Shown: one piece after another, positions 3,794 through 41,963 of the stretch
Position numbering within the stretch: the stretch's first letter is position 1
Layout of the letters: the number at the start of each line of letters is the position of its first letter
Source of the DNA: a virus
Virus record (IMG/VR): IMGVR_UViG_3300037493_005286
Span: 1 to 64,000 of that record
DNA length: 64,000 nucleotides
Strand: one strand, 5' to 3'
Position numbers and translations under genes: made by a program
The notes under the pieces: model-generated
The model's input: the letters and a program-made list of their open reading frames with translations, nothing else
The model's database searches: none
What the model was told of the DNA's origin: nothing

Positions 3794-4168
3794 CTATTTA
3801 CTCAAGTGATTGAAAAGGTCAATGTATTGTTCTAATTCTCTTTTAGAGATATTTTTATTTGTAGCTACAAGCTGTAGATGTTCGATTTCGTCTTCTTTTT
3901 TAGCTTTTATCTTTTTAATATAGCTAATCTTTTTAAACTTTAATCGAGGTATTAAATTTTGATAAAATTTAAACGTCTTATCCTTTTCGTTAAAAATAGC
4001 TCCAAATTTATTAAATGTCTCATTAACTAATACTGCTTGATCTTTATCGTAAAAGGTAAGCCATCTATTAATCATAAAAGGAGAAAAGCACTGAAGACTC
4101 TCATCGGTAATGTCTTCAGTGCTTTTTAACTTAAAGAATAAAATTCTAATTAAGTCGAATATAGTCAT
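3794..4168 (-). CDS. gp62: Clamp-loader small subunit gp62-like
   Basis: FSPFMINRWL...VNE...FYQNLIPRLKFKKISYIKK...ISKRELEQY pattern. Confidence 0.7.
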   Translation of the reverse strand: MTIFDLIRILFFKLKSTEDITDESLQCFSPFMINRWLTFYDKDQAVLVNETFNKFGAIFNEKDKTFKFYQNLIPRLKFKKISYIKKIKAKKEDEIEHLQLVATNKNISKRELEQYIDLFNHLSK

Positions 4169-4746
4169 ACAATAACTTTGGATGCGGCAATGCTAATATC
4201 TCTAACTTCACTATTAAAGAAATTACAAACAGCATTCATAAACTCTTCCACTTGCTCATCAGAGAGATTAGAAGAAAAGGCAAAACCTGGAGCTTTATTA
4301 CCTGCTTTGATATTAATACCGGTATGTCCAATTGCTGTGGTATTCTTCGAATAAGCAATCGACACACTGACTTTGCCTTGCTCTCTTTCCTTCTTATCAC
4401 TTCCAATAAACGTAGAGTTTACCATCAAGTCGTCGCCATCAATTAGAATCTTTAAGCCAGAAATTCTAGCCAAAATCATTGCAATATTAGCATTAAACCA
4501 GCGTTGAAAAGCAACAGCGCCAAATGCGTCAAGATTTGGAATCTCCCAGCAGAAGTTAATAGCGTCATCACTAAAGATATAATCCTTAGAAAGTGAATCC
4601 TCTAAATCAATTAGATGATCGCTTACATACATTGGTGCTCTAAATGCAACAATGTTACCACTAGCTGAGACTTCTTTCTTAAAGAAGCGATATGCAAATC
4701 GCTCGTGAATAAGATCGCCATTATACATCGGTTCGTCAATTATCAT
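4165..4746 (-). CDS. DUF366-like protein (BPL/LplA-like fold)
   Basis: YNGDLIHERFAY...IVAFRAP...LIDLED...IFSDD...GDDL...KVSVSIA...HTGINI matches my recollection of DUF366. Confidence 0.7.
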   Translation of the reverse strand: MIIDEPMYNGDLIHERFAYRFFKKEVSASGNIVAFRAPMYVSDHLIDLEDSLSKDYIFSDDAINFCWEIPNLDAFGAVAFQRWFNANIAMILARISGLKILIDGDDLMVNSTFIGSDKKEREQGKVSVSIAYSKNTTAIGHTGINIKAGNKAPGFAFSSNLSDEQVEEFMNAVCNFFNSEVRDISIAASKVIV

Positions 4747-4754
4747 ATAACTAA

Positions 4755-5723
4755 TTATAACGTATTTTGTTCTTTAATCCAGTAATAAACAGTTTCAAGT
4801 CCCTTCTTGAGTGGGTAGTTTGGAGCCCATCCGATTGACTGCTGTATAAGTTTATTGCAAGAGTTTCTACCTCTAACACCTAGAGGTGCATCTAATTTGT
4901 AATTACGTATTAAGTTTTTATTCTCGAAACTACAGGCAATATTAACAAGTTCATTTATTGTAACCATTTCTTCAGATCCAATATTAACCGGCTCACTAAA
5001 TTCTGATTCCATTAGCCTTCTTATACCATCTATACATTCATCAATATAAAGAAATGAGCGGGTTTGCTCACCGTCACCCCAAATTTCAATTTCAGATGTA
5101 GCTTCGATAACTTTCCTACAAATAGCTGCAGGTGCTTTTTCTTTACCACCGTGCCATGTTCCAAGCGGGCCAAAAATATTGTGAAATCTAGCAATACGTA
5201 CGTTTAAGTTATAATTACGCTTATATGCTAAAAATAAACGCTCACTAAAAAGTTTCTCCCAGCCGTATTCACTATCCGGGTTAGCAGGGTAAGCAGATTC
5301 TTCCGAGCAGTTAGGATTGCTAGGATCCTTTTGATTATGCTCTGGGTACATACAAGCAGATGAAGAATAAAACAGCTTTTTAACATTATACCTTACTGCC
5401 GCATCTGCAACGTTAAGATTAATAATCGCAGAGTTATGCATTACATTGGCGTCATTTTCACCAGAAAAAATGTAACCTGCGCCACCCATATCTGCAGCCA
5501 ATTGATATACCTCGTCAAAATTATTTGCGGATAGAAAAAACGTTTTATTTATAATGTCAATATCCTTTAAGTCGCCTTTAATAAACTCATCTGCGGTAGA
5601 TGCATTTTGATATTCTGGTATTTTTAAATCTACACCTCTTACCCAATAACCTTCACTTTTAAGACGGTTTACTAAGTGATTGCCTATAAATCCTCCTGCA
5701 CCTAAAACTAATGCTGTTTTCAT
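4755..5723 (-). CDS. GDP-mannose 3,5-epimerase-like SDR
   Basis: GAGGFIG, LAADMGGAG, YSSSACMYP, YGWEK, GGKEKAPAAICRK, GVRGRN. Confidence 0.9.
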   Translation of the reverse strand: MKTALVLGAGGFIGNHLVNRLKSEGYWVRGVDLKIPEYQNASTADEFIKGDLKDIDIINKTFFLSANNFDEVYQLAADMGGAGYIFSGENDANVMHNSAIINLNVADAAVRYNVKKLFYSSSACMYPEHNQKDPSNPNCSEESAYPANPDSEYGWEKLFSERLFLAYKRNYNLNVRIARFHNIFGPLGTWHGGKEKAPAAICRKVIEATSEIEIWGDGEQTRSFLYIDECIDGIRRLMESEFSEPVNIGSEEMVTINELVNIACSFENKNLIRNYKLDAPLGVRGRNSCNKLIQQSIGWAPNYPLKKGLETVYYWIKEQNTL

Positions 5724-5754
5724 TTAATAATAATTATCAATTTTAACCTATATA

Positions 5755-6561
5755 TCAAGTATATGTGACCCAGTTATCTGTTGTACTTCCTCTACTATTT
5801 AAATATTGATGTACATTCTTAACACTATTTCTATAGAGGATGCACCATATACCACAATTACCAGAGTGGGTTATTATGTGACTGCATTTTGAAATAATAT
5901 TAATAATAGCTACTAAATTTATACCGAATAGTACCCTATCTGCTATATTTAAAAAGGTATGTATAACTCTAGATGTATTTTTATGCATCATAGGTAACTC
6001 TTGCAATACTACACTATTATTAATATGCTTACTAAAATATTCATGAAATTCTATTTCATCTGTTTGAACTAAAAATGTAGCATTGTTATATTTACGTTGT
6101 AATTCTATAGCTTTTTGAACAAATATATCATAGGAGGCTATTTTTGTTTCTGTTTGCTTATCATTACCTCTATATAAAACAGCAATGGTATTATCATACT
6201 CTATGTTATATTTTTGTTCAATTTCCTTTATACGTGTTTGTACCTTTACACTAGGTGTAAAATACTTCTTAATAAAAGGATAAACACCGTTAAAATCTAA
6301 ATCACCGTATGGTAAGAACTGATAATCCCAGTGATGCCTTACACTGGTGTTACTTTTAATTGTAGTTATAAGGTCACTTTTAAAGAACTCTTGATCTATA
6401 TCATCACTAGAATTATTTTTATAGCTATAAAATTGAGCTGAGGTATCTATTTTTACCGGCAATCTCTTTTTATCGTTAAAAAAATCTACTATTTGGGTAA
6501 GTCTTACTGAACAGCATGAAAAAAATCCTGCGTTATGATCTATTACAAGTTCTGCTATCAT
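5755..6561 (-). CDS. NodZ/FucT-like (GT23-type) glycosyltransferase
   Basis: AGFFS N-terminus, AVLYRGNDK, VQTDE, SKCSHIITHSGN. Confidence 0.65.
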   Translation of the reverse strand: MIAELVIDHNAGFFSCCSVRLTQIVDFFNDKKRLPVKIDTSAQFYSYKNNSSDDIDQEFFKSDLITTIKSNTSVRHHWDYQFLPYGDLDFNGVYPFIKKYFTPSVKVQTRIKEIEQKYNIEYDNTIAVLYRGNDKQTETKIASYDIFVQKAIELQRKYNNATFLVQTDEIEFHEYFSKHINNSVVLQELPMMHKNTSRVIHTFLNIADRVLFGINLVAIINIISKCSHIITHSGNCGIWCILYRNSVKNVHQYLNSRGSTTDNWVTYT

Positions 6562-7316
6562 ACAGCTTTAAGCAGTATATGCGGCTTATTACATTTATTC
6601 GGTCTGAGCAAATAGTCATAATACCAGCTCTCTGTATCTCCTAATTTAATTTGCTCCCATATATTATGGATGCAGGTAAAGTATAGTGCGATTATACCTT
6701 GATCATTTGTTTTACTAAAGTTATATTTTTCAGCTAATGATAATAGATTATTAACGGTATCTTCTTTAATAATATCCGTATCAAACAACATAATAGTTGT
6801 CTGAGGATAGTCTATGTTCGTATTATATGTTTGATTAAGTTCATTAAATTGCTCTTCACTTTGAACAAATTGTGAATTTAATTTCCATTCGTATTGTGGA
6901 TAAGCATCAGAATGTGCAAGAAATTTGCCTACCTTCGTACTGCTTAATATAGGTGCTAGAGATCTAAAAACTGTAGTACCTGCATCAATATAAAAAATAT
7001 TTTTCCACTGCTTAAAAAAAATATCGAATACATGAAATTTATGATATTGAAATATTTTTTTTCTCCAGTGAGGATCTCTTTCTATACTAACAAATTTATT
7101 CATAAACTTTTCTGAAAAAATTATATCAGGAAAATGTTTAATTGTAATATTTTTTTGTTGTAGTATCGGTATGTTTAGTTTACTTGAATTAAGTAAATCA
7201 TCTCCAATAATAATACATATATCTTCGGTATTATTATATTGTAATATACCTGTTAAGGTATAAATCATCTTTTCAAAAAAAGAACTGTTAGTTAGCAATA
7301 CTATACAATTTTTCAT
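6558..7316 (-). CDS. GT8-like glycosyltransferase
   Basis: YHKFHVFD..FKQW..IFYIDAG, NDQGII. Confidence 0.7.
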   Translation of the reverse strand: MKNCIVLLTNSSFFEKMIYTLTGILQYNNTEDICIIIGDDLLNSSKLNIPILQQKNITIKHFPDIIFSEKFMNKFVSIERDPHWRKKIFQYHKFHVFDIFFKQWKNIFYIDAGTTVFRSLAPILSSTKVGKFLAHSDAYPQYEWKLNSQFVQSEEQFNELNQTYNTNIDYPQTTIMLFDTDIIKEDTVNNLLSLAEKYNFSKTNDQGIIALYFTCIHNIWEQIKLGDTESWYYDYLLRPNKCNKPHILLKAV

Positions 7317-7846
7317 GAGAGTAAACTACTATGAATATAATAATCGTCTTGAATTCCTTCTTGAACTAGTATGTATCCTTTAGATTTAAATAACTCCTGT
7401 GATGGAATTCTAAGTGATCCTGCGCCATATTGATCTTCTCGGTAATAATCCGTTTCATAAGTAACAATATTAAAAATATAATCACTTTCAAATAACCGTT
7501 GTAACGCTTTAAATGTAAGCGGAGGTGGTTCTAGATCTAAACTTAAATAATCTATGACTTTTGGCATATTATTGGCTGCCAGTAGTTGACTATAATCAAT
7601 TATTGTAGCATCGCCAGCTACAAATACGGATTGCTTTCTATTATCAATCCACCCTTGTTGATGCTTTTCCTCTATATCAACACCTACACCATGCCAATTA
7701 TGCTCCTTTTCTAAAAAATAAGTATTACTAATATATGAAAAGTCATGACACCCGATATCTAGAAACGTACCTTTCTTTCTACGTTTAAAATATTTTTTAA
7801 ATGTATTTAGAACGAACTCATCTTGGCCGATTTGGGAATAGAACAT
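7313..7846 (-). CDS. FkbM-family methyltransferase
   Basis: YSQIGQDEF, TFLDIG, SNTYFLE..W.GV.VD, IDYLSLDLE. Confidence 0.8.
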   Translation of the reverse strand: MFYSQIGQDEFVLNTFKKYFKRRKKGTFLDIGCHDFSYISNTYFLEKEHNWHGVGVDIEEKHQQGWIDNRKQSVFVAGDATIIDYSQLLAANNMPKVIDYLSLDLEPPPLTFKALQRLFESDYIFNIVTYETDYYREDQYGAGSLRIPSQELFKSKGYILVQEGIQDDYYIHSSLLS

Positions 7847-7880
7847 ATAATAGTTTATATTGGTATTTTAATAGTGCAAG

Positions 7881-10215: not shown

Positions 10216-10255
10216 ATTATGATTTAACGTTTAATTGCAACAATGCAATTTTATA

Positions 10256-11173: not shown

Positions 11174-11177
11174 TAGA

Positions 11178-12715: not shown

Positions 12716-14133
12716 TGATTATTAATGTTGAAGTAATTTCTCTGTCTTGTCATATACGTAATTTTATCTACCTCTTCGTAGACTTCATTATGTAAATACG
12801 TTTCGTCGAAGCCATTATTTGTTACAGAATGGTGGTCGTGTTTTATAATTACTTGATCAAAATATTTCTGCTTATTAAGTATATTACCTACTTGCGTAAA
12901 TTCCATATCACACCATAGAGACTTATATTCAGGGTTGTATATATACTCAAATCTATTATAATAGTTTTTACCTAAAATGCAAAGTGTATTAAGTCTGTTT
13001 TGTTGTATACCGTCATTAAACCATACAATACCATCAAAATCAGGAAAGGTATTACACATAGCTTTAATAATAATCGAATCATAACCTCTAACTACAGGTA
13101 TCATATCATCAGATGCAAGTAGTACTATTTGAAAATCTTGCTGCATCACTCCTGCATTAATAGCTTCTATTTTACTTTTACTATTACCATACTCAACTTC
13201 CAGGTTAGTATAGTTTTTAAACCTATTTTTTACCTCTGAATTATTCATTACAATATCGTCATTATCACAGGTAATAAGAAACTTTACATTACACTTACCT
13301 GATAAAAATTCATAATATTTGTCTAAGGTACTAAAGAATTTTTCTACCCGTCCTCTAGTTGGAAATTTTATTAATAATTTAGGCTCTTCGTATATAAATG
13401 TATTTGATATTTTAGTGCTTTTATATTGCTGTTTTATATTTTGAAAAGCTTGATATTTTTGCTCATACGCATTTACAAAAGCAGGATTATTATGTGTACC
13501 ACCAAAATCAATACCTGTATCTTCTTTAGTGTTGTCGAATTTATTTTTATACCAACTCATACCTTCTAGATGACTGTAGTGTGTATTTTCAAGATTAACA
13601 TTACCTATTTTTAAATTACAGTTTTTAATATCTTCCAGGAACGTAGAGCCTATATCATATATTTTATTAGTGCTAAAGCTAGCTTTCATTCTTGCTTCGT
13701 CAAAAAAGGTAATATTGTGATGCTTAATTTTTTCTACATCAATAAAGCAATGCCATGGATTAACTCTATTGTATATAGATTTACCTCCACGGTCACCTTC
13801 AACCTTACCCATAACAGCTAGATCCATATCTTTAAACTGTTGGAAAATAACGCTATGATCTTTTAAGAAAATAACATCAGTATCGACAAGAAGAGCATAT
13901 TTAGTTTTACATAATTTTAGAGCTTCATTAACCCCATCTCCATGACTCATTCCTGGTCGTGATATGTATGGTACTTTATGTTCGTCTAATAATCTTTTTG
14001 TATCACTGTTTGTTGAATTATCACAAACAATAAGTCTTTGTGTTCTATTATGTATACTCATCCAGGATTTTAACATTGTTAATGTTATATCAGGCGTATT
14101 ATATGAACATGTAATTAGGGTAAGCTCGTCCAT
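12712..14133 (-). CDS. Two-domain GT2/GT-A glycosyltransferase
   Basis: N-domain ITCSYNT..DNS..VDTD; C-domain KFPTRGR..LASDDMIP..YKSLWCD. Confidence 0.8.
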   Translation of the reverse strand: MDELTLITCSYNTPDITLTMLKSWMSIHNRTQRLIVCDNSTNSDTKRLLDEHKVPYISRPGMSHGDGVNEALKLCKTKYALLVDTDVIFLKDHSVIFQQFKDMDLAVMGKVEGDRGGKSIYNRVNPWHCFIDVEKIKHHNITFFDEARMKASFSTNKIYDIGSTFLEDIKNCNLKIGNVNLENTHYSHLEGMSWYKNKFDNTKEDTGIDFGGTHNNPAFVNAYEQKYQAFQNIKQQYKSTKISNTFIYEEPKLLIKFPTRGRVEKFFSTLDKYYEFLSGKCNVKFLITCDNDDIVMNNSEVKNRFKNYTNLEVEYGNSKSKIEAINAGVMQQDFQIVLLASDDMIPVVRGYDSIIIKAMCNTFPDFDGIVWFNDGIQQNRLNTLCILGKNYYNRFEYIYNPEYKSLWCDMEFTQVGNILNKQKYFDQVIIKHDHHSVTNNGFDETYLHNEVYEEVDKITYMTRQRNYFNINNQ

Positions 14134-14966
14134 TTGCTTTTAATAATTTCTAACGACTTTATTACATTTTGCTTACTTTGAAATGGTGTTGTGTTTGGAT
14201 ACACACCATGCTTCTTAAGGTATATTTCTCTACCCTTATATGTATTTTCTACCCATTCTTTTTGATTTGTAGATGTTGTACTTTTTTCAATTGCATCTTC
14301 TTGAACCTTTAAATAGTTAACGCTATTTCTAATATCTGCAAACCACCAGAATGGAGGATGATCTCCTTTCAATATAATGCGGTAGGTATGATCAACATGT
14401 TCCCATGCGTTAATAAAAGCTTCGTCGTGTAGCCCAACTTTTTCTAAAACTTGTCGTGTAAAAAAGCTAAAGCTCCCTACAATATGTTCGTATAGATCAA
14501 TAGCTATATCTTTAGTATACTCTACAGTTAGTTTAGTTCTAGGTTCTGTACAATTATCTAATAGATGTCTATTATATAAATCGTAACTCTTAATAGATTG
14601 CTTACGATTAAAAGGTGAACCCGGTCCATAATTAAAATGCTGTATACCTGTTGCTTTGTGAGTGTTTATATAAACATTAAATACATTTGTATCTAATATA
14701 ATCATATCATCCTCAATAATAAAAATATAATCGCAACCTTTATCTAAAAGATGTTGCATAGCTTTATTTTTTGATTTACCTACGCCTAAGTTTACATCAT
14801 TATCAATCCATTGACCGAAAGAGAGGTCAAATTCTGTTATAGGCTTACCGTCATTTACTACTACTAAATGATCAATCTTACCTTCGTGTTCTGCAGGCAG
14901 TGAATTCATAAGTGATTGTAGGTATTCTGGTCTATTACATGTAATAATTCCTACGCCAATCTTCAT
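14115..14966 (-). CDS. GT2 glycosyltransferase (start revised to MKIGVG)
   Basis: GIITCNRPEYL, VVVNDG, NLGVGKSKN, IIEDD; sigma70-like promoter directly upstream of 14966. Confidence 0.85.
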   Translation of the reverse strand: MKIGVGIITCNRPEYLQSLMNSLPAEHEGKIDHLVVVNDGKPITEFDLSFGQWIDNDVNLGVGKSKNKAMQHLLDKGCDYIFIIEDDMIILDTNVFNVYINTHKATGIQHFNYGPGSPFNRKQSIKSYDLYNRHLLDNCTEPRTKLTVEYTKDIAIDLYEHIVGSFSFFTRQVLEKVGLHDEAFINAWEHVDHTYRIILKGDHPPFWWFADIRNSVNYLKVQEDAIEKSTTSTNQKEWVENTYKGREIYLKKHGVYPNTTPFQSKQNVIKSLEIIKSKWTSLP

Positions 14967-15021
14967 ACTTAAATTTATGAACATATCCGCACAAATCAAT
15001 CTTGAATAATTAAATATGTAT

Positions 15022-15636
15022 ATGGCCTGTACAGATGGAACAAAACTATACACTAATATTAAGGAACTTCCCGTAACTACAGATATTACAAACGGTGATT
15101 TTCTTATTGTAGAGACTCCTACCGGTACTAATATACTTGATTATACGGACTTATTAATAACGCTAGATAACACAACATTTGCAGGTGTAATCAGTGGTAA
15201 TACGACTGATATTTTATCACTCCAGACACAGTTTAACACGTTAAGCTCTACATTAACAACACAAGTCCAAGAAGTTAGCGCACAAACAGATCGCTCTTAT
15301 ACGTATGCTGTATTTTCTCTAACTACTTATAGTAGTGCAGGTGCAGACGTTAATTCTGGTGAACGTAATATACCTATACTAAATGGATCTAATATTGCAA
15401 GTATAACTCTAAATACTACTACGTCTTTTAATATAGGTACTAGTGCTGTTACTATTAACTTTTTAACAAACTTTGCTAGTAATAATTACTGTGTAACTTT
15501 TGGTGCACAGGACACTATTAATAGACCGCTTGTATCGGCAAAATCTTTTGGTACAAACAGTCTATCTTTAGAAGTTACAAATTCATCAAATGCATTTTGT
15601 ACAGCAAATAGAGTTTGTGTTCAAATTATTAATTAG
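15022..15636 (+). CDS. Late virion-associated protein (tail fibre/baseplate-like)
   Basis: TAAATA 5 nt before ATG; IKELPVTTDITNGDFLIVE N-terminus; Thr/Ser/Asn-rich beta-type C-terminus. Confidence 0.55.
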   Translation: MACTDGTKLYTNIKELPVTTDITNGDFLIVETPTGTNILDYTDLLITLDNTTFAGVISGNTTDILSLQTQFNTLSSTLTTQVQEVSAQTDRSYTYAVFSLTTYSSAGADVNSGERNIPILNGSNIASITLNTTTSFNIGTSAVTINFLTNFASNNYCVTFGAQDTINRPLVSAKSFGTNSLSLEVTNSSNAFCTANRVCVQIIN

Positions 15637-16367
15637 TATTTAATACCGAATTTTTTAAATAATTCTTTTTCAGCCTCTTCTTTACCGAGAGCAGTTTGCT
15701 GCTGCTTCATGAGAGTTTCAATTGCTGTTAAGTTTTCAGGAGTAAATAAAGATTGCTCATCTCCATATATATCTCCACTTGGTGAGATATATTCTGCAAT
15801 TGTATCAATACGTTGTTGCGGCTTAGTAGGCAGTACAATTATACCTGGTGAATCATCTTTTGGAAAGAAGATATCAGCATCGTAATTTTGCTCGTATTGC
15901 AAGAATAGCGAGTTAAATATGTTATCTATTTCCTCAATATACTCTTTATTAACTTCGCGTAGCTCATCATCCACAATTTTGATGCTTGGATCATATCTTA
16001 ATAAAAATATAATATCTAAGTGCCTCATAGACTCCTTTGTGAGGCTAATGCACTTATCTACATATTCTTTATCAAACCCCTCAATCTCTTTATTATGCGC
16101 CCATAAAGTATATACTAAGTTATCTAGAGGACATCTATCAAAAACGACATTGGAATCCTTATCATGCTCTTGAAGCTGATCGATCATAAAATTTAAGATA
16201 TCCCATTGAGTATCTGTCGTTGTTTTTGATGAATGTTCAAGATTTTTTTCTTTAATTAAATCTCTATATGTCTTTTCTGGAGTTTTGTAGTTTGACCAAA
16301 CTGCTAGAAAGTTTTTAACAAGAGTAGACTTACCTGTATTAGCTGTACCGGAGATTGCAATGCGCAT
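15633..16367 (-). CDS. P-loop nucleotide kinase-like (AAA_28/NadR-type)
   Basis: RIAISGTANTGKST, FDRCPLDNLVY. Confidence 0.75.
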   Translation of the reverse strand: MRIAISGTANTGKSTLVKNFLAVWSNYKTPEKTYRDLIKEKNLEHSSKTTTDTQWDILNFMIDQLQEHDKDSNVVFDRCPLDNLVYTLWAHNKEIEGFDKEYVDKCISLTKESMRHLDIIFLLRYDPSIKIVDDELREVNKEYIEEIDNIFNSLFLQYEQNYDADIFFPKDDSPGIIVLPTKPQQRIDTIAEYISPSGDIYGDEQSLFTPENLTAIETLMKQQQTALGKEEAEKELFKKFGIKY

Positions 16368-16385: not shown

Positions 16386-16985
16386 TTACATATTTTTCAA
16401 GAACGAAGCCCACTCTTCTTTATAAATTTCAAAAGATAATCCCTTATTAGGATTATATGGCTTGTACTTTAATTTTAGTCCAACCTGCTCCGGAGTAAAT
16501 GATGCTTTTTTGGAATTAGTCAGTCTATCGCAGCATACCATATTCTCCCATGTATCTGTACCACCTCTGCTTTTTGGTACAATATGATCTACACTAAGTT
16601 CATCTTTAGCTAATTTTTTACCTGTATATACACACGTAAAATTGTCGCGTTTAAGTATATTTTGTTTTGTAGGAAACGATACTCTATTATAGACAATTTT
16701 ATCGTAGCGTGAACACACTACTACGGATGGTATACGTACAGGGCCGCGCGCTGTTTGAATATACTCATCATAAGGCCTTATAGGTAACTGCAACCATTCA
16801 CTTACAGACGTTATAGGTACAAAGTATTCAATAACCTCCTGATTAACTACATTTTCATCTGTAGTTTCATAGCTAATATCAAGCGGTACTACGGATTTAG
16901 AGAAAATATTACCGAAGGTCTTTTCTAGGCTTTCAACAGCAATTGGAAAATAATATTTATTGAGAACTAAAATTTTAGCTTTCAT
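16386..16985 (-). CDS. HNH endonuclease (McrA/HNH_5-like, bacterial type)
   Basis: LVLNK.Y.P, NILKRDNFTCVYTG, VDHIVPKSRGG..TWENMV...N..K. Confidence 0.9.
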   Translation of the reverse strand: MKAKILVLNKYYFPIAVESLEKTFGNIFSKSVVPLDISYETTDENVVNQEVIEYFVPITSVSEWLQLPIRPYDEYIQTARGPVRIPSVVVCSRYDKIVYNRVSFPTKQNILKRDNFTCVYTGKKLAKDELSVDHIVPKSRGGTDTWENMVCCDRLTNSKKASFTPEQVGLKLKYKPYNPNKGLSFEIYKEEWASFLKNM

Positions 16986-17743
16986 TAAACTTTTAAAGCA
17001 AGATTCCAGAGAACCAAATGGAGTCTTGGACTAAAGTTAACATTCATAGCCTTAGCATACTCTGCTACCGCCGGAGCTTTTTCAAGATGCTCGTCACGAG
17101 ATCCGCAGCAAGGCATAAACCACACACGATTAAGAGGTACATTGATTCCATTGTCATGACTAATATATTTACGCCAAATCTCATCTATATCCTCGGAACG
17201 ACTAATAACAAATTTAAATCCCGAATGATTACTAACATGCCATTTAAGAACATCAGGTTTGTAAGTCTTTTCTTCTGGATCACCGTTTGTAGTTAGTTTA
17301 GGTGATGTAGTAAACGTCGCTTTAAATTCACTTACCCAGCGATCATCCGGTTTAAGTGTTGCATTAGTTTCAAAGTCAATACGTGGTAAAAATCCATACT
17401 TCTTATCGAACGCTTCTACTAATTTGAGTAACTGCTTTTGCTGAATCATAGGTTCACCTCCAGTAAGTTTCCAGATGGCACCTTTAAAGAGTTTAGCAGT
17501 GTAATTATTATCATCCATTAACTTAAAGATTTCATTAAATGTCATCTTATTTTTAACGGACCACGATACGTACGAGTCACATCCATTAGGAGAGTCTTCA
17601 GACGCAAATCCTACACAAGTAAGATTACACATGGACATTCTCATGAATACAGATGGCTGTCCAATATATTCTCCTTCTCCTTCAATAGTATAAAAAATAA
17701 GGTCGTCCGATAAAAATAGCGTTTCTGTATCACAGTCAATCAT
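16985..17743 (-). CDS. queE: 7-carboxy-7-deazaguanine synthase (radical SAM); start may be 17743 or 17770
   Basis: IFYTIEGEG..IGQPSVFMR, CNLTC..GCDS, LTGGEP, ETN, SPKL, SPRLH. Confidence 0.9.
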   Translation of the reverse strand: MIDCDTETLFLSDDLIFYTIEGEGEYIGQPSVFMRMSMCNLTCVGFASEDSPNGCDSYVSWSVKNKMTFNEIFKLMDDNNYTAKLFKGAIWKLTGGEPMIQQKQLLKLVEAFDKKYGFLPRIDFETNATLKPDDRWVSEFKATFTTSPKLTTNGDPEEKTYKPDVLKWHVSNHSGFKFVISRSEDIDEIWRKYISHDNGINVPLNRVWFMPCCGSRDEHLEKAPAVAEYAKAMNVNFSPRLHLVLWNLALKV

Positions 17744-17801
17744 ATTATTATTATTATATAACAGTTCCATATTTCAAGTGTTTTGATTAAATATTCTTAA
17801 C

Positions 17802-18551
17802 ATGACCCGTAAAGTGGCGCGCAAGCGCAAGACTGCTGGTTTGGAGGAAGCTGCGGATTTCGAAGCTTCTTTTCAAAAAAACTGGATACTTGATTTTAAA
17901 ATCAAGAGACCCTTCCACTTCAACACTAATCATCAACAGTTCTTTAATAGTATAAAGCATGATGATACAAACATGGCTTTTGTAGCAGGACCAGCTGGTA
18001 GCGCTAAGTCATATATTGCAGTGTTAGCGGGCCTTGAATTACTCAAGGAGAAGAAAATAACAAGTATTATATACATTAGATCTGTTATTGAATCTGCATC
18101 GCGTAGCATTGGGGCTCTACCGGGAGAGATAGATGACAAGTTCTCTCCGTATGCTATGCCCCTTATTGAAAAGATAACAGAAATTACAGATGCTAGTACA
18201 TGTAATAATCTTAAATCAAACGAAATTATTCGTGCAGTGCCTGTTAACTTTGTTAGAGGTCTTACCTTTAACGATTCGTTAGTTATAGTTGACGAAGCTC
18301 AAAATTTACAAAAATCCGAGTTAGTTACAATCTTAACACGCTTTGGTAAAAATACTAAGTATGTTATTTGCGGTGATTTAAATCAAAGCGATATTGGTAA
18401 ACAATCCGGATTTAAAGAAGTGTACGATCGCTTCGATACGGACGAATGCGTGGATCATAAAATCCACGCATTCGAATTTGGAGAATCTGAAATCGTTAGA
18501 AGTAAGATTCTTAAGTTTATTGTTAAGGTATTAGAAGCTAAGCAGCATTAA
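17802..18551 (+). CDS. phoH: PhoH-like ATPase
   Basis: GPAGSAKS, IGALPG, FVRGLTF, VDEAQN, TRFG, GDLNQSD. Confidence 0.92.
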   Translation: MTRKVARKRKTAGLEEAADFEASFQKNWILDFKIKRPFHFNTNHQQFFNSIKHDDTNMAFVAGPAGSAKSYIAVLAGLELLKEKKITSIIYIRSVIESASRSIGALPGEIDDKFSPYAMPLIEKITEITDASTCNNLKSNEIIRAVPVNFVRGLTFNDSLVIVDEAQNLQKSELVTILTRFGKNTKYVICGDLNQSDIGKQSGFKEVYDRFDTDECVDHKIHAFEFGESEIVRSKILKFIVKVLEAKQH

Positions 18552-19252
18552 TTACCCCACGATGTGCCGCCGAAGAGGTTGCCCATTCCTGATGTAACAG
18601 CATTACCTACAACTGCACCTCGTGACGTCATACGACCGGGTGCAGGAGTATCGTCTACTGGTTGTACCTTTGCGATATTTTCACCCGGTGTAGTTGATCC
18701 CATAGTAACTGTGTTTTGAGTCATGGACGACCCGATTTCAAAAGTACTATCTAAAATTGTAGGTTGTATATCTACTCTAAAGCTTTGCGTTTGTGTAGCT
18801 GCTTGTTCTTGTGAATAGGTAGCAGAGTTTTCTTCATGTTCAAACACTTCAACTTTATCTACCCAGCAACGGCCATTTGTAAGATTACGTACATATTTAT
18901 CAGCAATGGTAAATACATTTTCAGCTGCTCGTTCAATGCCAACACCACCTTCAAGAATCTGAAGCTGAATAATTCCCTTATCATTTAAAGCTTTAAACGT
19001 ATTAAGTTCTGGATCATCTGCAGCTACTGTGGTTGTATGATCGTAAATACTTTGTAGTAGGGCTTTGAGTTCTTTAAGACCTCCAAAATCTACAACCCAA
19101 TTTTTATCATCTAAGGATGATCCGTTAAACCATAGCTTAGCTTTAAGCTGATAACCATGTAGATACTTACAATGCGATTGTGATGCGCGCCATTGACGAA
19201 AAGCGCATGAACCGAGCTCGATTACTTTTGTTGATTGAAAAACAGGTTTCAT
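18548..19252 (-). CDS. queD: 6-carboxytetrahydropterin synthase with C-terminal extension
   Basis: HCKYLHGY, WVVDFGGLK, DHTT, EVFEHEENSA. Confidence 0.88.
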   Translation of the reverse strand: MKPVFQSTKVIELGSCAFRQWRASQSHCKYLHGYQLKAKLWFNGSSLDDKNWVVDFGGLKELKALLQSIYDHTTTVAADDPELNTFKALNDKGIIQLQILEGGVGIERAAENVFTIADKYVRNLTNGRCWVDKVEVFEHEENSATYSQEQAATQTQSFRVDIQPTILDSTFEIGSSMTQNTVTMGSTTPGENIAKVQPVDDTPAPGRMTSRGAVVGNAVTSGMGNLFGGTSWGN

Positions 19253-19955: not shown

Positions 19956-20621
19956 TTATTTAACAGAAGACATATCGATGAACTTATATAATTCAGTTCT
20001 CGTTTTTTCATCAGCAAGAAAATCACCGGTAAGTTTAGAAGTAATCATAAAACAACCGTCATGACGGACACCTCTATTACATGCACAGGTATGTTGAGCT
20101 TTAAGTACAACAGCAACACCTAGATTACCTTCGCACGCTGTATTGACTGCATCAGCAATTTGCTTAGTTAACATTTCCTGAATTTGAGGTCTTCTAGCGT
20201 AGAATTCTACAATTCTATTGAGCTTACTAAGACCAATCACCTTACCGTCTAGACTTGGAATATACGCAACATGAGCTACGCCTGTAAAAGCTAAATGGTG
20301 ATGAGAACAAAGAGATTTAACAGGAATATTACATTGAGCAACAATACCATCGTAACCATCATTAGGAAAAGCAGTTACATTAGGTTGATTATCATAACAA
20401 CCTGTCGCAATATCATTGACGAATGCTTTTGCGACGCGCATTGGTGTATTATCTGAGTTTGGATCATTTCGCCAATCGAAACCTAAAGCATCCATGTATT
20501 TCTCATATGCTTTTGCTGCGCGTTTAATAATCGCTTGTTTTTCTTTTTCAGTTCTAGGTGCATTTCCGTTAGCGTACGGAAGCTTAATAAGCTCGCCAAT
20601 ATCTGTATGATCTTCTTCCAT
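19956..20621 (-). CDS. folE: GTP cyclohydrolase I (start revised to MEEDH)
   Basis: [42 protein letters not shown]. Confidence 0.95.
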
Positions 20622-20660
20622 AATAAATATATTGTAACTGCTGAATTCTGGTAAATCAAC

Positions 20661-20668
20661 TATAAATA
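20661..20668 (+). promoter_or_regulatory. T4-type late promoter TATAAATA
   Basis: Exact consensus, 5 nt upstream of ATG 20674. Confidence 0.8.
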
Positions 20669-20673
20669 ACAAT

Positions 20674-21120
20674 ATGGCTAAGTTATCGCAAAAAGAACTA
20701 ATTAATGAAGGTGTTTTTAAAAATATATTAAGAGGTGTCGCGAAAACAGCATTGCAAGGTGCCAAGGGATTAGCGAAAGGCGTTGTTAAAACAATAACAC
20801 CCACGGGTTATAGTGTATTAGCTAGCGGTGCTAGTAAGGCAAAGCAAGTCGGTAAGAGTATTAAGCAAAATTTTGCAACTAAGGAAGATCAATTGACCGA
20901 TATATTATATCAACGTGGATACATACCAGTGGATAAGGTAAGAGGCGATATTAATAAGCAAGGTACAGTAACTGTTGCGGAACTAGAATATGATCCTCAA
21001 GGTAAACCTATACCGGGTCAAACTTTACCATCACCTGTCGTTTTTACTAATAAAAACGGTACTATTAACATAGTACGTGGACCGTATCGTCGTACAGCAT
21101 CAACTCGACCTACTAGTTAA
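20674..21120 (+). CDS. Late basic protein, putative internal head protein
   Basis: Late promoter; N-terminus [12 protein letters not shown]|G resembles a prohead-protease-cleaved leader. Confidence 0.55.
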
Positions 21121-21550: not shown

Positions 21551-21551
21551 A

Positions 21552-22626: not shown

Positions 22627-22633
22627 ACATTTA

Positions 22634-22652
22634 TATTTATATGTTATAAATA
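22634..22652. promoter_or_regulatory. Back-to-back divergent late promoters
   Basis: TATAAATA on the minus strand (22634-22641) and plus strand (22645-22652), each 7 nt from an ATG. Confidence 0.8.
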
Positions 22653-32092: not shown

Positions 32093-33307
32093 ATGTATAA
32101 TCCGAGCCCCTTCCCACAGCCAATTGTATCGCCTTTTCCTCAGATGATGAGGGAGCCTGCACCTCAAGTTACACCTCCCTCGCAACCTGCGGAATTAGGT
32201 CTACCTAGATATATTAACTACCTAGCTGACTATAGCGGCTGTGGTCATTGGCGTATATTATGGCCGGAACAAATAATTAACGCTACGGGTGTTGGCTGCT
32301 CAAGCTCTTTAACAGCTATGGTATTTGATCCTAGATGGTATCAGGGTGTTAAATCTATTAAACTTCAAAGACAAGCAAGTTCACAGCAAAAACAATTCGT
32401 TCAATTCTTAAAAGAAATACAACCTCAAATTGGCTTTAAGTTAATCTATGAAGTTGACGATGTTGTCTTTAGAGAAGATATTCCCGACTATAATAAGTTT
32501 AAGTTTGCGTTTGATAACGATGAAATTAGACAAAACTGTATCGATATTATTAATATGTGTGATGAAGTTACAGTAACATGTGACTTTATGCGCAAGTTAT
32601 ATCAAGAACGTACAGGTAAAAAGGAGATTACCGTTATACCTAACTTTGTACCGCATACCTGGCTAGGCTACCTATACGATAAAAAGCGCGTTTATGAATC
32701 TTACGAGAAAAATAAGAAACGCCCTCGTATTTTATATACCGGATCCGGAGCTCATTACGATGTTGATAATAAAGTAGGAGGCAAGGATGATTTCGAGCAA
32801 ATTGTTCAGTTTGTTGTAGAAACAAGAAACAAGTATCAATGGATCTTTGTTGGTTCCTTCCCACCTCCGTTACTCCCTTATATTCAAAGTAAAGAAATTG
32901 AGTTTCATCAATGGCAGTCACTAGTAGACTATCCACGTTTGTTAGCTGCGTTAGATGCCCAGTTAATGGTTGCACCACTTCAAGTCAATAATTTTAACAA
33001 TGCAAAATCTGATATTAAATTTATCGAAGCAGCTATCCTCGGTATACCATGCTTGTGTCAAAATATGGAAACATACGCTGTGGCTCCAGCTGCACTTAAG
33101 TTTGATAATGTAGAAGAATTCGGTCAAAAAATCGAAAATATTCTAAGTTATAAAAACAGACAAGCCTACTTTAAAAATGTTGACGTCTTACATGAAATAG
33201 GCGCTGCAAGAACTCTGGAAATTCCAGAAAATATTGGCTGTCACATTGAGGCTCTCAACACTCCATATGGCTCACCTGAGAGAAAATATCTTAAGAAGTG
33301 GAATTAA
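32093..33307 (+). CDS. GT-B fold glycosyltransferase with Pro-rich N-terminus
   Basis: DYSGCGHWRI.WP, YEVDDVVF, VIPNF, APLQVNNFNNAKSDIKFIEA..LGIP. Confidence 0.8.
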   Translation: MYNPSPFPQPIVSPFPQMMREPAPQVTPPSQPAELGLPRYINYLADYSGCGHWRILWPEQIINATGVGCSSSLTAMVFDPRWYQGVKSIKLQRQASSQQKQFVQFLKEIQPQIGFKLIYEVDDVVFREDIPDYNKFKFAFDNDEIRQNCIDIINMCDEVTVTCDFMRKLYQERTGKKEITVIPNFVPHTWLGYLYDKKRVYESYEKNKKRPRILYTGSGAHYDVDNKVGGKDDFEQIVQFVVETRNKYQWIFVGSFPPPLLPYIQSKEIEFHQWQSLVDYPRLLAALDAQLMVAPLQVNNFNNAKSDIKFIEAAILGIPCLCQNMETYAVAPAALKFDNVEEFGQKIENILSYKNRQAYFKNVDVLHEIGAARTLEIPENIGCHIEALNTPYGSPERKYLKKWN

Positions 33308-38148: not shown

Positions 38149-38154
38149 AAGATC

Positions 38155-38904
38155 ATGAGGAAACAAAAATTAGTTTTAGCGTTTAGTGGTGGTGCGGATA
38201 GCACATTACTATTATACATGGCAGCTCAACAAGGATATGAAGAGATTCATACTGTGTCTTTTGACTATGGCCAGAGACATCATAGAGAACTAAAGTGTGT
38301 TAATAAGCAGCTGCTAAACATTAATAAAAAATATCCTGATATAACAGTAACTAATAAAGTATTAGATGTAAGATATCTCAAAGATATATCACCTACCTCT
38401 TCTCTCACGAACGACGATATTGATAATCCGGATATTAGTAAAATTGCTGGTGACGCTCAACCTGTATCGTACGTACCGTTTCGAAACCAAATGTTTATTA
38501 CAATTTGCTGTGCATACGCTGAGAGTTTAAAAGCTGATACAGTATGGTATGGTGCAGCTCAAGTAGATTCATTAGCCGGTTACTGGGATGGGAGCTATGA
38601 GTTTGTTGATAGTGTTAACAGCTTAGTATCACTTAACAGACAACATAGGATTACCGTAGGAGCTCCATTGCTCTCCATGTCAAAGGCTGATATTGTAAGA
38701 CAGGGTGTAGAATTAGGCGTAAACTTCGGAGATACATGGACATGTTATTCTAACCGCGAAGATGGACTAGCTGATGCAACTACACCTTCAAGTAGTTTGA
38801 GGTTGCAAGGGTTTATTGATGCTGGATACAAAGATCCCATCAAGTACCTTCAACAGGAAAAACTTGATGGGATTTATGAAGTTAAAAATTGTAAAGAATT
38901 ATAA
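38155..38904 (+). CDS. queC: 7-cyano-7-deazaguanine synthase QueC-like (atypical)
   Basis: FSGGADS, FDYGQRH, SSLT, YVPFRN, PLLSMSKADIV..G, TWTCY. Confidence 0.9.
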   Translation: MRKQKLVLAFSGGADSTLLLYMAAQQGYEEIHTVSFDYGQRHHRELKCVNKQLLNINKKYPDITVTNKVLDVRYLKDISPTSSLTNDDIDNPDISKIAGDAQPVSYVPFRNQMFITICCAYAESLKADTVWYGAAQVDSLAGYWDGSYEFVDSVNSLVSLNRQHRITVGAPLLSMSKADIVRQGVELGVNFGDTWTCYSNREDGLADATTPSSSLRLQGFIDAGYKDPIKYLQQEKLDGIYEVKNCKEL

Positions 38905-40281
38905 GCCGTAGCGTCTAAGCTCCTCTAACTGAAAACTAGTTTTTGGAGCAAATTTTTGTTTAAAGCTTACCGATTCTGTAATTGGCTTCGGAGTAGAATA
39001 CACTACTTGCTCCGACATATAAGTTGCAGTATAACTTTCACCTACAACCTTAGAGTCATCGAATCCTCTTTTCTTGGCGATTGCCTTTTCCCACGGCTCA
39101 ACCTTACCACTTTTATTAAGGTCAGCTTTTTTAGGATTAAACTCTTCGTCCTCACCGCCTATATCTTGACCAATGTATAGTTCATCTACTTGAGCTGATT
39201 CTTCTGGTGTAAGATCTCTACCCATTATATGCTGCATATACGCTATTGCTTGCTTTTCATCTGCAAACTCACCTTCTGAAGCCTTATTATTCATAAATTC
39301 AAAAGCACCGTCGAAATCATCTGTAAAGTCAGGCTCTGCTTCATATTCCGCTTCCCATGGATTAACAGGTCCTGGACGCATTCCCTTTTCACGAGCTATA
39401 CGTGCAGCATGTAGTTCCTGACCATAATCATCATCATAACCATCTTCTGCTTCTTCTTCTTTAGAACCCATAACTTCATCATATTCCTTCTCACCGACTC
39501 CGGCTCTACCACTAGGATCGTAGTATGACTCAGGATCTGTTTCTTCATCTTCTACCATTTCTTCATCTTCTTTTCCTTGAACAATAGGCTTTACTGCTGC
39601 AGAAAGGTACGCTGCAATTTTCTCATAACCAGGTAAGCTTCCTATTTGATTGACAAACGATTTAAGCTTTTCTACGCTGTTAATTTTAGGTGCAAAATCC
39701 ATTACCTCTGCTAAAGCTGTATCATCAATATCAAATCCTGGTTCACCTAAATTAGTTTGAATTTCTGAGAGTATTTTAGCAACAGAAGCACGCACAATAA
39801 GAGAATCATCTGCAATAAGATCAGTAAGAGCGTCGTCCATTTCCTTACCAGTACGTGTTTGTCTTACTTGCTTGGCCATTTCTTGCGCTACAGCACGAGC
39901 AGCATATTTTTCTTCTCTACCTCTATTTACACCGACACCGCCTATAAAATCATCAAGGGTATCAGATATTCTTGCTGCAATTTCATCACTCTTAGCGTTA
40001 ATTAATTCTTGCTTTTGTTTTAACACATTAAGCATAGCTTGCTTTTTACCTGTAAATCCAGCTCCGTTTTTAATTGCATTAAGTTCGCCATCGTCTATAA
40101 TGTCTAAGAAGTAAAGAACTTCACGAATAAATTTAATTGTATCTAACGGAGCAGAACTTAAACCGCCTGCTTTCATTTTGGAAGTAATACCTCCAAAAGA
40201 AGGATGCGAAGCTGTATAAGGCGAAACCTTTGCTTCTGTTAATATTGATACTCGTGTTAAAAGATCTTGAAAGGAACTCAT
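38899..40281 (-). CDS. Acidic late protein, putative internal head protein
   Basis: TATAAATA 6 nt upstream; MSSFQDLL..ILTE|A; EF-hand-like ADLNKSGKVEPWE. Confidence 0.65.
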   Translation of the reverse strand: MSSFQDLLTRVSILTEAKVSPYTASHPSFGGITSKMKAGGLSSAPLDTIKFIREVLYFLDIIDDGELNAIKNGAGFTGKKQAMLNVLKQKQELINAKSDEIAARISDTLDDFIGGVGVNRGREEKYAARAVAQEMAKQVRQTRTGKEMDDALTDLIADDSLIVRASVAKILSEIQTNLGEPGFDIDDTALAEVMDFAPKINSVEKLKSFVNQIGSLPGYEKIAAYLSAAVKPIVQGKEDEEMVEDEETDPESYYDPSGRAGVGEKEYDEVMGSKEEEAEDGYDDDYGQELHAARIAREKGMRPGPVNPWEAEYEAEPDFTDDFDGAFEFMNNKASEGEFADEKQAIAYMQHIMGRDLTPEESAQVDELYIGQDIGGEDEEFNPKKADLNKSGKVEPWEKAIAKKRGFDDSKVVGESYTATYMSEQVVYSTPKPITESVSFKQKFAPKTSFQLEELRRYGL

Positions 40282-40299
40282 ATATTATATTTATACCAT

Positions 40300-40617
40300 A
40301 TGCAATTAAATTGGACGGATTTTAACGAAATGTCACATAAAAAAATGTGTGAGCTACCCGGAATAGGTAAAAAGGTAGTGGAGCGTATTATTAGTATGCG
40401 TCCTTTTAGATCAAACGATGATCTTTTTAAGATTAAGGGTCTAGGCAAACATACACTAAACAACCTCGGCATTGAAAAAACTAAGAAAGAACGTAAATCA
40501 TGGCATCTTATGCCAGATGGTATTGAATATCCATCATACGCTCTAGCTAAAAATAATTTAACAGGTCAAATTGATTTTTTCTGGAGAATGCCAAAGGAGA
40601 GACGAGAATACCTATAA
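40300..40617 (+). CDS. Helix-hairpin-helix DNA-binding protein (ComEA-like)
   Basis: LPGIGKK..ERII..RPF.S.DDL.KIKGLG. Confidence 0.8.
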   Translation: MQLNWTDFNEMSHKKMCELPGIGKKVVERIISMRPFRSNDDLFKIKGLGKHTLNNLGIEKTKKERKSWHLMPDGIEYPSYALAKNNLTGQIDFFWRMPKERREYL

Positions 40618-40621
40618 CGTT

Positions 40622-41287
40622 ATGTGTGCTATTATAGGATCTAACAATGTATCTAAATTTGAGGTACTATACGAAGGTAATTTACCTAGAGGTAACTTCT
40701 CTAGTGGCGTCGTCTGCTTGTATAACGGTAATGAGCAACAAACAATTAAAAAGCAAGGTACCTTAGATTTTAATCAAATAGAACTAGATGATAGATGCAA
40801 CTACTACATCGGTCACGTACAAGCTCCTACATCAGCAGCTCGTGAGTGGTCGTATGATACATCACACCCCTTTGAATCATTATCATGGTCGGTAGTTCAT
40901 AATGGAGTATTGACTAACTGGAAGGAATTAGTAAGAGAATTCGTTGATTGGGATGTAAATCCTGTTGATACAGCTGTAATTCCTAATTTATTACAGCAAT
41001 TTACAGAAGAATGCATTAATGAGTGTTTAGCTACATCAACCATAAAGAGTGTCTTAGGTAAGCTAGAAGGAACATTTGCATTATGTGTTATAGATACTGA
41101 CTGTAATGAAGTTTATATTGCTAGGCAAGGATCTATTTTACACTACAATGACAACGGTGATATTTCGACTCTTGAAGGTGAAGGCTTTAAATTGCTACCT
41201 GAAGGTGTAATTATGGTATTAAAAGACTTTAAAACATGGGAGATTGCTGATTTCTTTGAAATTAAATCACCATTCTTATTTTTATAA
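40622..41287 (+). CDS. Stand-alone class II (Ntn) glutamine amidotransferase (start revised to MCAIIG)
   Basis: N-terminal Cys; RGNFSSG, IGHVQAPT, SHPF, VHNGVLTN, VDTAVI, GTFA. Confidence 0.8.
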   Translation: MCAIIGSNNVSKFEVLYEGNLPRGNFSSGVVCLYNGNEQQTIKKQGTLDFNQIELDDRCNYYIGHVQAPTSAAREWSYDTSHPFESLSWSVVHNGVLTNWKELVREFVDWDVNPVDTAVIPNLLQQFTEECINECLATSTIKSVLGKLEGTFALCVIDTDCNEVYIARQGSILHYNDNGDISTLEGEGFKLLPEGVIMVLKDFKTWEIADFFEIKSPFLFL

Positions 41288-41291
41288 AATT

Positions 41292-41963
41292 ATGTCAATA
41301 AACAAAACACTATATTTCTCTGCAACAAAGGGAAGCCGTAAAGATACTTTGTTATTTAAAAATAGTTCTACTTATAATAAGTTTATTTTTAAAGAAAACA
41401 ATACTTTACCTTTGCCGCAAATTTATAATAAAGCCATCGATTTGGCTATTGAAGGTAAAAAGGACTATCTTGTACTATGTCATGACGATGTAATTATTGA
41501 ATCTGACGTAGCGTATAAATTACCTGATATTCTTCGTACAGAATTTGATATGGTAGGCGTCGCAGGCACCACAGAGTGTAAATTACAAGAACCAGCGCTA
41601 TGGCATATCATGGGAGGTGGATTTGAGAACGGTAAACTACATGGCGCTGTCGGACATGGTAACGATCAACGTAAAAGTATGACATCATTCGGAACATACC
41701 CTCAACGCGTTATACTTATCGACGGTGTGTTTATGGCAATTCACCGCAGAGTATTTGAAAAAATTAGATTTGATGAAACTAACCCGGCAGGCTTTCATTT
41801 TTACGATTTAGATTATTCTATGCAGTGTTATAAAGCTGGCTTTAAAATCGGTGTATCAGACATTATGATTACTCACGCATCTCCTGGACTCAGAGAATTT
41901 ACCGAAGAGTTTAATAAGGGACAAAAGTGGTTTTTAGATAAGTGGCAAAATAAACCTGCTTAA
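41292..41963 (+). CDS. GT-A glycosyltransferase (GT2-like)
   Basis: IYNKAI, LCHDDV, GVAG, IDGVFMA, FHFYDLDYS, H.SPG. Confidence 0.8.
   Translation: MSINKTLYFSATKGSRKDTLLFKNSSTYNKFIFKENNTLPLPQIYNKAIDLAIEGKKDYLVLCHDDVIIESDVAYKLPDILRTEFDMVGVAGTTECKLQEPALWHIMGGGFENGKLHGAVGHGNDQRKSMTSFGTYPQRVILIDGVFMAIHRRVFEKIRFDETNPAGFHFYDLDYSMQCYKAGFKIGVSDIMITHASPGLREFTEEFNKGQKWFLDKWQNKPA

Follow-up and report, generated by a model that had tools for sequence, protein, structure and literature searches.

A precursor-making gene set for 7-deazaguanine DNA modification in an uncultured T4-like virus, most likely of the known DpdA3/DpdN type

The closest described counterpart of the genes considered here belongs to Flavobacterium phage immuto_2-6A, whose DNA contains 345,000 7-(formylamino)methyl-7-deazaguanine (fdPreQ1) per 10^6 nucleotides with no deoxyguanosine (dG) peak, and whose gp204 (YP_010114479.1) is the protein named DpdN, according to the available parts of PMC10516641. 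The same parts state that all 7-deazaguanine phages known at the time have a gene for a DpdA and that the DpdA3 and DpdA4 subfamilies had escaped earlier searches; they give [M+H]+ 324.1 for the fdPreQ1 nucleoside. Campylobacter phage CP220 (dADG, DpdA3) and Cellulophaga phage phiST (dDG, DpdA3, DpdL) stop at 7-carboxy-7-deazaguanine (CDG) or 7-amido-7-deazaguanine (ADG), or decarboxylate (same source). Phage 9g uses DpdA1 and makes dG+ with a Gat-QueC protein, and the KVP40-like vibriophages (Schizotequatrovirus; nt-1, phi-Grn1, phi-ST2, VH7D) encode FolE, QueF, QueC, a stand-alone PF00310 amidotransferase and DpdA2, with well under 1% of G modified (Table 1 of PMC10516641 and Nat Commun 2019, each as far as available). 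Here we analyse a window of 64,000 nucleotides, the first 64 kb of the IMG/VR virus contig IMGVR_UViG_3300037493_005286 (87,453 bp; hereafter G000), which encodes enzymes of 7-deazaguanine synthesis together with T4-type replication genes.

Judged by its sequences and those of its relatives, this gene set is most likely a further member of the known DpdA3/DpdN type, carried by a large uncultured T4-like clade, and we consider it likely that the window contains the half of a DpdA3-type phage system in which the precursor is made, the system as a whole exchanging the guanine of virion DNA for a 7-deazaguanine. An earlier note on this DNA had recognised phage 7-deazaguanine DNA modification, and this identification holds; its further reading, of an undescribed system working without DpdA, is not supported. 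Genes were called from Pfam, PHROGs and NCBIfam profile searches of the 82 window open reading frames (ORFs) and 18 other ORFs of the contig, which is rated 41% complete by CheckV and has a G+C content of 33.6% (31-37% along the window). Its T4-type replication and structural genes comprise a gp43 family-B polymerase, UvsX, gp41, gp32, gp46/47, UvsW, gp15 and a gp55-like gene. When 24.9 kb were compared with the phage collection by megablast, no named phage proved close, and the polymerase (polB) is at most ~31% identical to those of named phages (cyanophage, pelagiphage and other T4-like polymerases). Searching IMG/VR with polB yielded 256 confirmed relatives, from which 80 loci of 64-84% identity were kept. 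The relatives referred to most often below are G003, the closest found (polB 84% identical), and G001 (196,877 bp, 93% complete), which has ribonucleotide reductase genes at both ends, an arrangement that suggests terminal redundancy and an essentially complete assembly. The genes picked out in the earlier note (FolE, QueD, QueE, QueC, a class-II glutamine amidotransferase, DUF366, a kinase, a helix-hairpin-helix (HhH) protein and two glycosyltransferases) were all recovered at or near where it had placed them, with family matches far beyond chance. Those closest to the pathway are:

15633..16367, minus strand, AAA_28 (NadR ribosylnicotinamide-kinase-like) P-loop kinase (PF13521, E 5.8e-13; dNK, E 3e-4)
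16985..17770, minus strand, QueE, radical S-adenosylmethionine (SAM) 7-carboxy-7-deazaguanine synthase (phrog_2076, E 4.7e-42; TIGR03963, E 8.7e-13, under the cut-off)
18548..19252, minus strand, QueD, 6-carboxytetrahydropterin synthase (PF01242, E 6.8e-15; phrog_2389, E 1.9e-36)
19956..20804, minus strand, FolE, GTP cyclohydrolase I (PF01227, E 1.5e-47; phrog_2197, E 7e-60; NF006824, E 1.4e-47)
38155..38904, plus strand, QueC, zinc-less variant (PF06508, E 6.8e-51; TIGR00364, 147.4 bits against a cut-off of 150.3)
40571-41287, plus strand, likely start ATG 40622, Gat, class-II (N-terminal nucleophile, Ntn) glutamine amidotransferase (GATase_6/7, E 5.7e-9)

FolE, QueD and QueE convert GTP to CDG, and with QueC all four genes of the pathway to 7-cyano-7-deazaguanine (preQ0) are encoded in the window. 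FolE is 52% identical to that of immuto_2-6A, 69% to the G001 homologue and 89% to the G003 homologue. As listed, its ORF opens at a GTG with ~85-96 unmatched N-terminal residues; since the family match begins at residue 85-97 and FolE in the relatives has 215-231 amino acids (aa), the true start probably lies downstream of this GTG. A plus-strand ORF at 20674-21120 that overlaps FolE is probably spurious. QueD carries a C-terminal extension of ~85 aa and is 40% identical to immuto QueD, and the best named relatives of QueE are haloarchaeal virus QueE proteins (33-35%).

A C-terminal four-cysteine zinc site is a feature of QueC structures. The window QueC had been called atypical, and it is: the PP-loop is retained (SGGADS, of the SGGxDS pattern), whereas three of the four C-terminal zinc-ligand cysteines are gone, the alignments showing the first Cys alone ('WTCYSNREDGLADATTPSSSLRL') and loss of the CxxCxxC ligands. 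This loss is common to all 23 clade sequences (consensus) and to immuto_2-6A QueC; the QueC proteins of KVP40, CP220 and 9g retain the four cysteines. As immuto QueC also lacks the ligands in a phage that reaches 7-aminomethyl-7-deazaguanine (preQ1), the zinc-less form appears compatible with preQ0 synthesis. The closest named relatives of the window QueC are in KVP40-like phages (36-37%). In all 26 relatives whose sequence extends far enough the gene lies downstream of UvsX, and it is present in all five long relative records.

Gat is probably, by analogy, the glutamine-hydrolysing partner of QueC. Read from ATG 40622 it opens with MCAIIGS, which places the Ntn catalytic Cys directly after the start Met, and an MCAI start is found in 15 of 17 distinct relatives. 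Its PDB sequence matches are the glutaminase domains of GlmS and PurF (E 3.7e-9). Gat shares 27% identity with the corresponding domain of 9g Gat-QueC (E 2e-7), the window QueC matches the C-terminal half of the same protein (E 2e-16), and both match a single PHROG, phrog_10428, of 476 positions. In contrast to 9g, where these are the N- and C-terminal halves of one protein that carries the zinc motif, the window has two genes 1.7 kb apart with two others between them; this split is the same in all 19 relatives in which Gat could be assessed (present in 19/19), and the fusion is absent. A co-folding prediction of QueC with Gat (score 0.06, mark 0.32) gave no evidence either way. The earlier note was right to place the amidotransferase with QueC, but the pairing is not new: in KVP40-like vibriophages a Gat homologue, there unnamed, follows directly after QueC, which itself follows QueF. 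These phages resemble the clade in being T4-like and in having the closest named relative of the window QueC, and differ in their intact QueC zinc cysteines and in a Gat only ~23% identical to that of the window.

Among the 100 ORFs scanned no match to tRNA-guanine transglycosylase (TGT)/DpdA or to QueF was obtained, and no ArcS turned up, although no ArcS-specific model was applied; the absence of these genes from the window, as first described, holds to this extent, on a contig that is 41% complete. No formyltransferase was found on the contig. The window contained no Rfam family, hence no preQ1 riboswitch, and no tRNA, and an exact 32-base search of IMG/VR found no overlapping contig with which G000 could be extended. 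Because the DpdA3 and DpdA4 subfamilies escaped earlier searches and all 7-deazaguanine phages known at that time encode a DpdA, the relatives were examined with the phiST prototype of DpdA3 (CGPG_00065), which was searched against G000 and the records of four relatives (G001-G004). It matched G002 (E 1.9e-13), G003 (E 1.2e-11) and G001 (E 4.4e-7), with no match in the G000 contig or in G004. The Pfam TGT model matched nothing in G000 and, at E values up to 10, none of five long relatives, and the DUF6610 (DpdA4) model gave sub-threshold matches in G001 and G002 that fall on the DpdA3 gene.

The G003 protein is 46.7% identical to the annotated DNA guanine transglycosylase of immuto_2-6A (E 3e-67), ~45% to CP220 gp056 and other CP220-type Campylobacter phage proteins, and ~28% to the phiST protein. 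It matches 26 phage records, all of Campylobacter, Cellulophaga, Flavobacterium, Chryseobacterium or Weizmannia phages. An AlphaFold2 model built from 11 sequences (predicted local distance difference test, pLDDT, 94.4) retrieved tRNA-guanine transglycosylases first in Foldseek (E 3e-8, probability 1.0, query template-modelling score ~0.6).

By blastp, G003 and G001 share a row consisting of DpdA3, a DpdN-like formyltransferase, a kinase and QueF. In G003 the genes after DpdA3 encode a PurN-like Formyl_trans_N protein, an AAA_28 kinase and a bimodular QueF_N+QueF protein (TIGR03138, E 2e-75), the last with an ESKSHKLY stretch and an NCRVT..QPDW cysteine in its alignment, which we take to be QueF motifs. 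Their identities to the immuto proteins are 41% for DpdN (E 4e-41), 37% for the kinase (E 3e-29) and 48% for QueF (E 2e-93), and G001 is alike. The gene order is that of immuto_2-6A, where gp206 is DpdA, gp204 the formyltransferase, gp203 a 'thymidylate kinase' and gp202 QueF. Over G001 and G003 together the likeness to immuto amounts to 47% for DpdA3, 41-44% for DpdN, 32-37% for the adjacent kinase, 46-48% for QueF and 29-32% for a small phosphoribosyltransferase (PRTase), and with G000 included to 51-61% for FolE and 38-40% for QueD, besides the zinc ligands missing from QueC in both. The row agrees in order and sequence with a published system, and the view of the gene set as an undescribed one is not supported. 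The differences are also clear. In immuto the genes form one region in a phage with a family-A polymerase, whereas in the clade they lie in three places of a T4-like genome with a family-B polymerase; the clade has in addition conserved glycosyltransferases, a second kinase and a stand-alone Gat; the QueE proteins share no more than 21% identity; and the window's own contig lacks the DpdA3 block.

G000, G001 and G003 are syntenic, and the leftmost genes of the window (gp15, helicase) correspond to 50.3-53.0 kb of G003, in which the DpdA3 block is found at 29.8-32.8 kb, on the far side of the genes for portal, protease and capsid. Given this synteny, we infer, on strong grounds, that the row lies ~18-21 kb beyond the left end of the window and contig. 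With DpdA3 homologues in three of the four relatives' records searched and the row placed off the contig by synteny, a system that dispenses with DpdA is not what the evidence points to.

In the scheme that we favour, a second block (DpdA3, DpdN, kinase, QueF) would lie on the ~59% of the genome outside the contig. QueC would make preQ0, supplied with ammonia by Gat through glutamine hydrolysis in a split, AsnB-like arrangement; QueF would reduce preQ0 to preQ1, DpdN would formylate, and DpdA3 would swap the base in for G. Most or all G positions would in that case be occupied by fdPreQ1, as in immuto_2-6A, and the DNA would be protected from restriction. Several points weigh against this scheme. 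The DpdA3 block is off this contig, so that its presence here is predicted from relatives at 60-84% protein identity, and one of these, G004 (39% complete), gave no DpdA3 match. DpdN was detected in only nine of 15 DpdA3 loci with downstream sequence. DpdA3 activity could not be shown in E. coli by the authors of PMC10516641, as reported in its available parts. Finally, Gat was not detected in immuto and no Flavobacterium record is among 58 Gat matches; in this respect the clade departs from the reference system, so that its product could be a different one.

Other genes of the window considered here are:

4165..4746, minus strand, DUF366 protein (PF04017, E 1.8e-22)
14115..15053, minus strand, GT-A type glycosyltransferase next to the kinase (phrog_2456, E 1.5e-25)
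16386..16985, minus strand, HNH endonuclease between QueE and the kinase (HNH_4, E 1.1e-10)
32093..33307, plus strand, GT-B (GT4-like) glycosyltransferase between gp46 and the DNA polymerase (phrog_7162, E 3.1e-24)
38899..40281, minus strand, fast-evolving 460-aa ORF between QueC and the HhH gene (homologue of 24-71% identity in 19/19 relatives)
40267..40617, plus strand, ComEA-like HhH protein (PF12836, E 2.6e-9; TIGR01259, E 9e-5)
41244..41963, plus strand, GT2-like glycosyltransferase overlapping the end of Gat (PF13712, E 4.9e-14)

We treat the glycosyltransferases, the HhH protein, the 460-aa ORF and DUF366 as conserved neighbours to which the evidence assigns no role in the pathway. The order gp47, gp46, glycosyltransferase, polB, UvsX, QueC, 460-aa ORF, HhH, Gat, GT2, gp41 is invariant, and it cannot separate function from synteny because the clade has no member without QueC. 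Within it, the GT-B gene is found in 45 of 45 relatives, the GT2-like gene in 19 of 19 and the HhH gene in 18 of 19. The 460-aa ORF has no match in Pfam, PHROG, NCBIfam, PDB or the phage collection (Atlas scores at most 0.85). The GT-A protein matches Glycos_transf_2 (E 3e-4) and TAGT (E 1.9e-3, 18.6 bits against 27.5) below cut-off and has homologues beside the kinase in G001 (51%) and G003 (61%). For the GT-B protein, an AlphaFold2 model (pLDDT 85.9) gave SenB, WaaG, BshA and MshA as best Foldseek matches (E ~1e-10), with no DNA glucosyltransferase among the matches listed; the GT2-like protein has no match in the phage collection. DUF366 is 61-68% identical in G001 and G003. Its sole structural relative is PDB 2DDZ, an uncharacterised archaeal protein (E 7e-4), its sole phage-collection match is MaAM05, where it is set among bacterial-type genes, and no match over the cut-off was obtained in immuto, CP220, phiST, KVP40 or 9g; a whole-word search of the literature found no mention. 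In the other DpdA3 loci fetched, neither DUF366 nor the GT-B, GT2 and GT-A genes had a match. No result ties the glycosyltransferases or DUF366 to the base, with which the earlier note had tentatively connected them. The combination that marks phage DNA glycosyltransferases, a T4 alpha/beta-GT or TAGT family match with a ThyA or TET/JBP acceptor enzyme, was not found. A role in glycosylating 5-hydroxycytosine or hydroxymethylcytosine, of the kind described in the available part of PMC13326640, was considered and rejected, as G000-G004 contain no ThyA homologue that could supply a hydroxylated pyrimidine acceptor.

The same genes could act in another order, with the modified base synthesised ahead of replication at the level of free nucleotides: base exchange by DpdA3 would take place on a nucleoside or nucleotide, or the PRTase would ribosylate the base, conversion to the deoxynucleoside triphosphate would fall to NadR-type kinases and ribonucleotide reductase, and the polymerase would incorporate the product, which would explain complete replacement. 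We regard this as possible but doubtful. In its favour, a P-loop kinase adjoins DpdA3 in CP220 (gp057), immuto (gp203), G001 and G003. Of 15 IMG/VR DpdA3 loci with downstream sequence, 12 have a kinase and QueF after DpdA3. The window kinase beside QueE is a second, paralogous copy (38% over 98 aa to the DpdA3-adjacent kinase of G003, 29% to CP220 gp057 with E 4e-9, 26% to immuto gp203, no PDB sequence match), and a small XPRT/HGPRT-like PRTase occurs beside ribonucleotide reductase in G001 and G003, between QueE and FolE in immuto, and in phiST, which has no QueC. Yet the PRTase is absent from CP220 (and from KVP40 and 9g), and PRTase and kinase would equally fit salvage of exchange-released guanine to GTP, the substrate of the pathway. 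Nor was a candidate enzyme for destroying dGTP found: neither G000 nor G001 gave a Pfam match to the HD or MazG families, and the clade has no detected homologue of CP220 gp055 (an HD and P-loop protein), phiST MazG or immuto gp208. The published view, in the available parts of PMC10516641, is post-replicative insertion, and no literature on a nucleotide-level route was found. Incorporation at the nucleotide level, one of the possibilities raised at the outset, survives only in this form, with DpdA3 and not without it.

A departure from the immuto product is less probable still. That the end product is instead dG+ (the archaeosine base) from the split Gat and QueC, or for example a derivative glycosylated by the GT2, GT-B or GT-A enzyme, we judge improbable. 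Gat and QueC do correspond to the two halves of the protein that gives dG+ in 9g, Gat, GT2 and HhH are kept in 18-19 of 19 relatives and GT-B in 45 of 45, and the kinase/GT-A pair is retained in G001 and G003. Against this, G001 and G003 have QueF and DpdN, which use preQ0 and preQ1, and the KVP40-like phi-Grn1 and phi-ST2, with QueC, Gat and QueF, contain dPreQ1/mdPreQ1 and not dG+ (Table 1 of PMC10516641, in the part available). The GT2 enzyme has no homologue in the phage collection, the GT-B model resembles GT4 enzymes that act on small molecules, lipopolysaccharide and proteins, none of these genes occurs in the other DpdA3 loci fetched, ThyA is lacking for a hydroxylated pyrimidine acceptor, and fdPreQ1 presents no obvious sugar acceptor. 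A wider reading combines clade-specific conserved genes and/or a pre-replicative dGTP route, with a modified dGTP built by DpdA3, two NadR-type kinases, PRTase and ribonucleotide reductase, or a tailored base; tailoring would fall to the QueC/460-aa ORF/HhH/Gat/GT2 block, to the paired kinase and GT-A genes and to the GT-B gene next to the polymerase, and might yield a new derivative, for instance a 7-deazaguanine with an amidino group or a sugar. We hold this to be unlikely. It is very improbable that the phage has no DpdA at all and that its preQ0 genes are auxiliary metabolic genes feeding host tRNA queuosine, or a decaying remnant. The 87-kb contig has no DpdA, TGT or QueF, but it is 41% complete, DpdA3 is present in the three longest relatives' records searched, and the pathway ORFs of the window are all intact and conserved.

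The HNH gene at 16386..16985 has a 77% identical homologue in G003 and none in G001, and is probably a homing element outside the pathway. It, a GIY-YIG gene at 37473-38099 (minus strand) between UvsX and QueC, with a homologue in three of 80 related loci (L018, L021, L022), and a SegE-like GIY-YIG gene at 26213-26629 (minus strand) probably encode homing endonucleases and are located within the blocks of pathway and replication genes. In L019-L022 and L072 the polB match spans ~3.8 kb against 2.57 kb, which suggests an intein, intron or endonuclease insertion. Just beyond FolE are a homologue of retropepsin-like (RimB/RloA-type) aspartic peptidases at 21113-21664 and a cytidylyltransferase-like protein at 22021-22731 (phrog_3041, E 1.8e-49), both on the minus strand.

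The window has other sugar-related genes. The minus-strand region 5755-15053 encodes ~10 glycosyltransferase-like proteins (GT47/exostosin-like, GT11, GT8, GT2, Gly_transf_sug) and an epimerase, is largely unrelated in sequence to its G001 and G003 equivalents and is therefore a hypervariable sugar island; the TcdA_TcdB match of the protein at 7881-8648 reflects the shared GT-A catalytic domain only. From 57019 to 64000, and on to ~70000 of the contig, a sugar-tailoring island among tail-fibre genes encodes radical SAM/SPASM proteins, aminotransferases, epimerases, a PIG-L deacetylase, a GT8 enzyme and an Asp/Arg hydroxylase.

In G001 (L089-L098) the auxiliary genes encode PSCyt2, PSD1 and DUF1501 proteins, families typical of Planctomycetes, together with CsgF/CsgG and a FecR and CHASE2-cyclase pair; further genes encode GMP reductase (NF003470, E 1e-150), Fe/Mn superoxide dismutase, transaldolase, an RpiB-cytidylyltransferase and a full-length sigma-70. 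The PRTase and GMP reductase of G001 raised the idea of a toyocamycin-like, DpdA-independent route, the genes of which are a PRTase, GMP reductase and PurA/PurB homologues. It was dropped, as 199 scanned G001 ORFs contained no PurA/PurB homologue and DpdA3 was found. By Pfam, the window has no PRTase, GMP reductase or PurA/PurB homologue; the PRTase is in G001 and G003, and GuaC in G001 only.

That the system seemed to lack DpdA is best explained by two circumstances: the contig covers only part of the genome, and the Pfam TGT model does not recognise DpdA3. The stand-alone glutaminase associated with QueC is a detail that the available parts of PMC10516641 do not treat. The same holds for the kinase, and often the PRTase, that accompanies DpdA3, a point relevant to the question of whether replacement takes place before or after replication. 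If the reading favoured here is right, complete replacement of the fdPreQ1 type would no longer be confined to a single cultured Flavobacterium phage but would include a large T4-like clade of uncultured phages.

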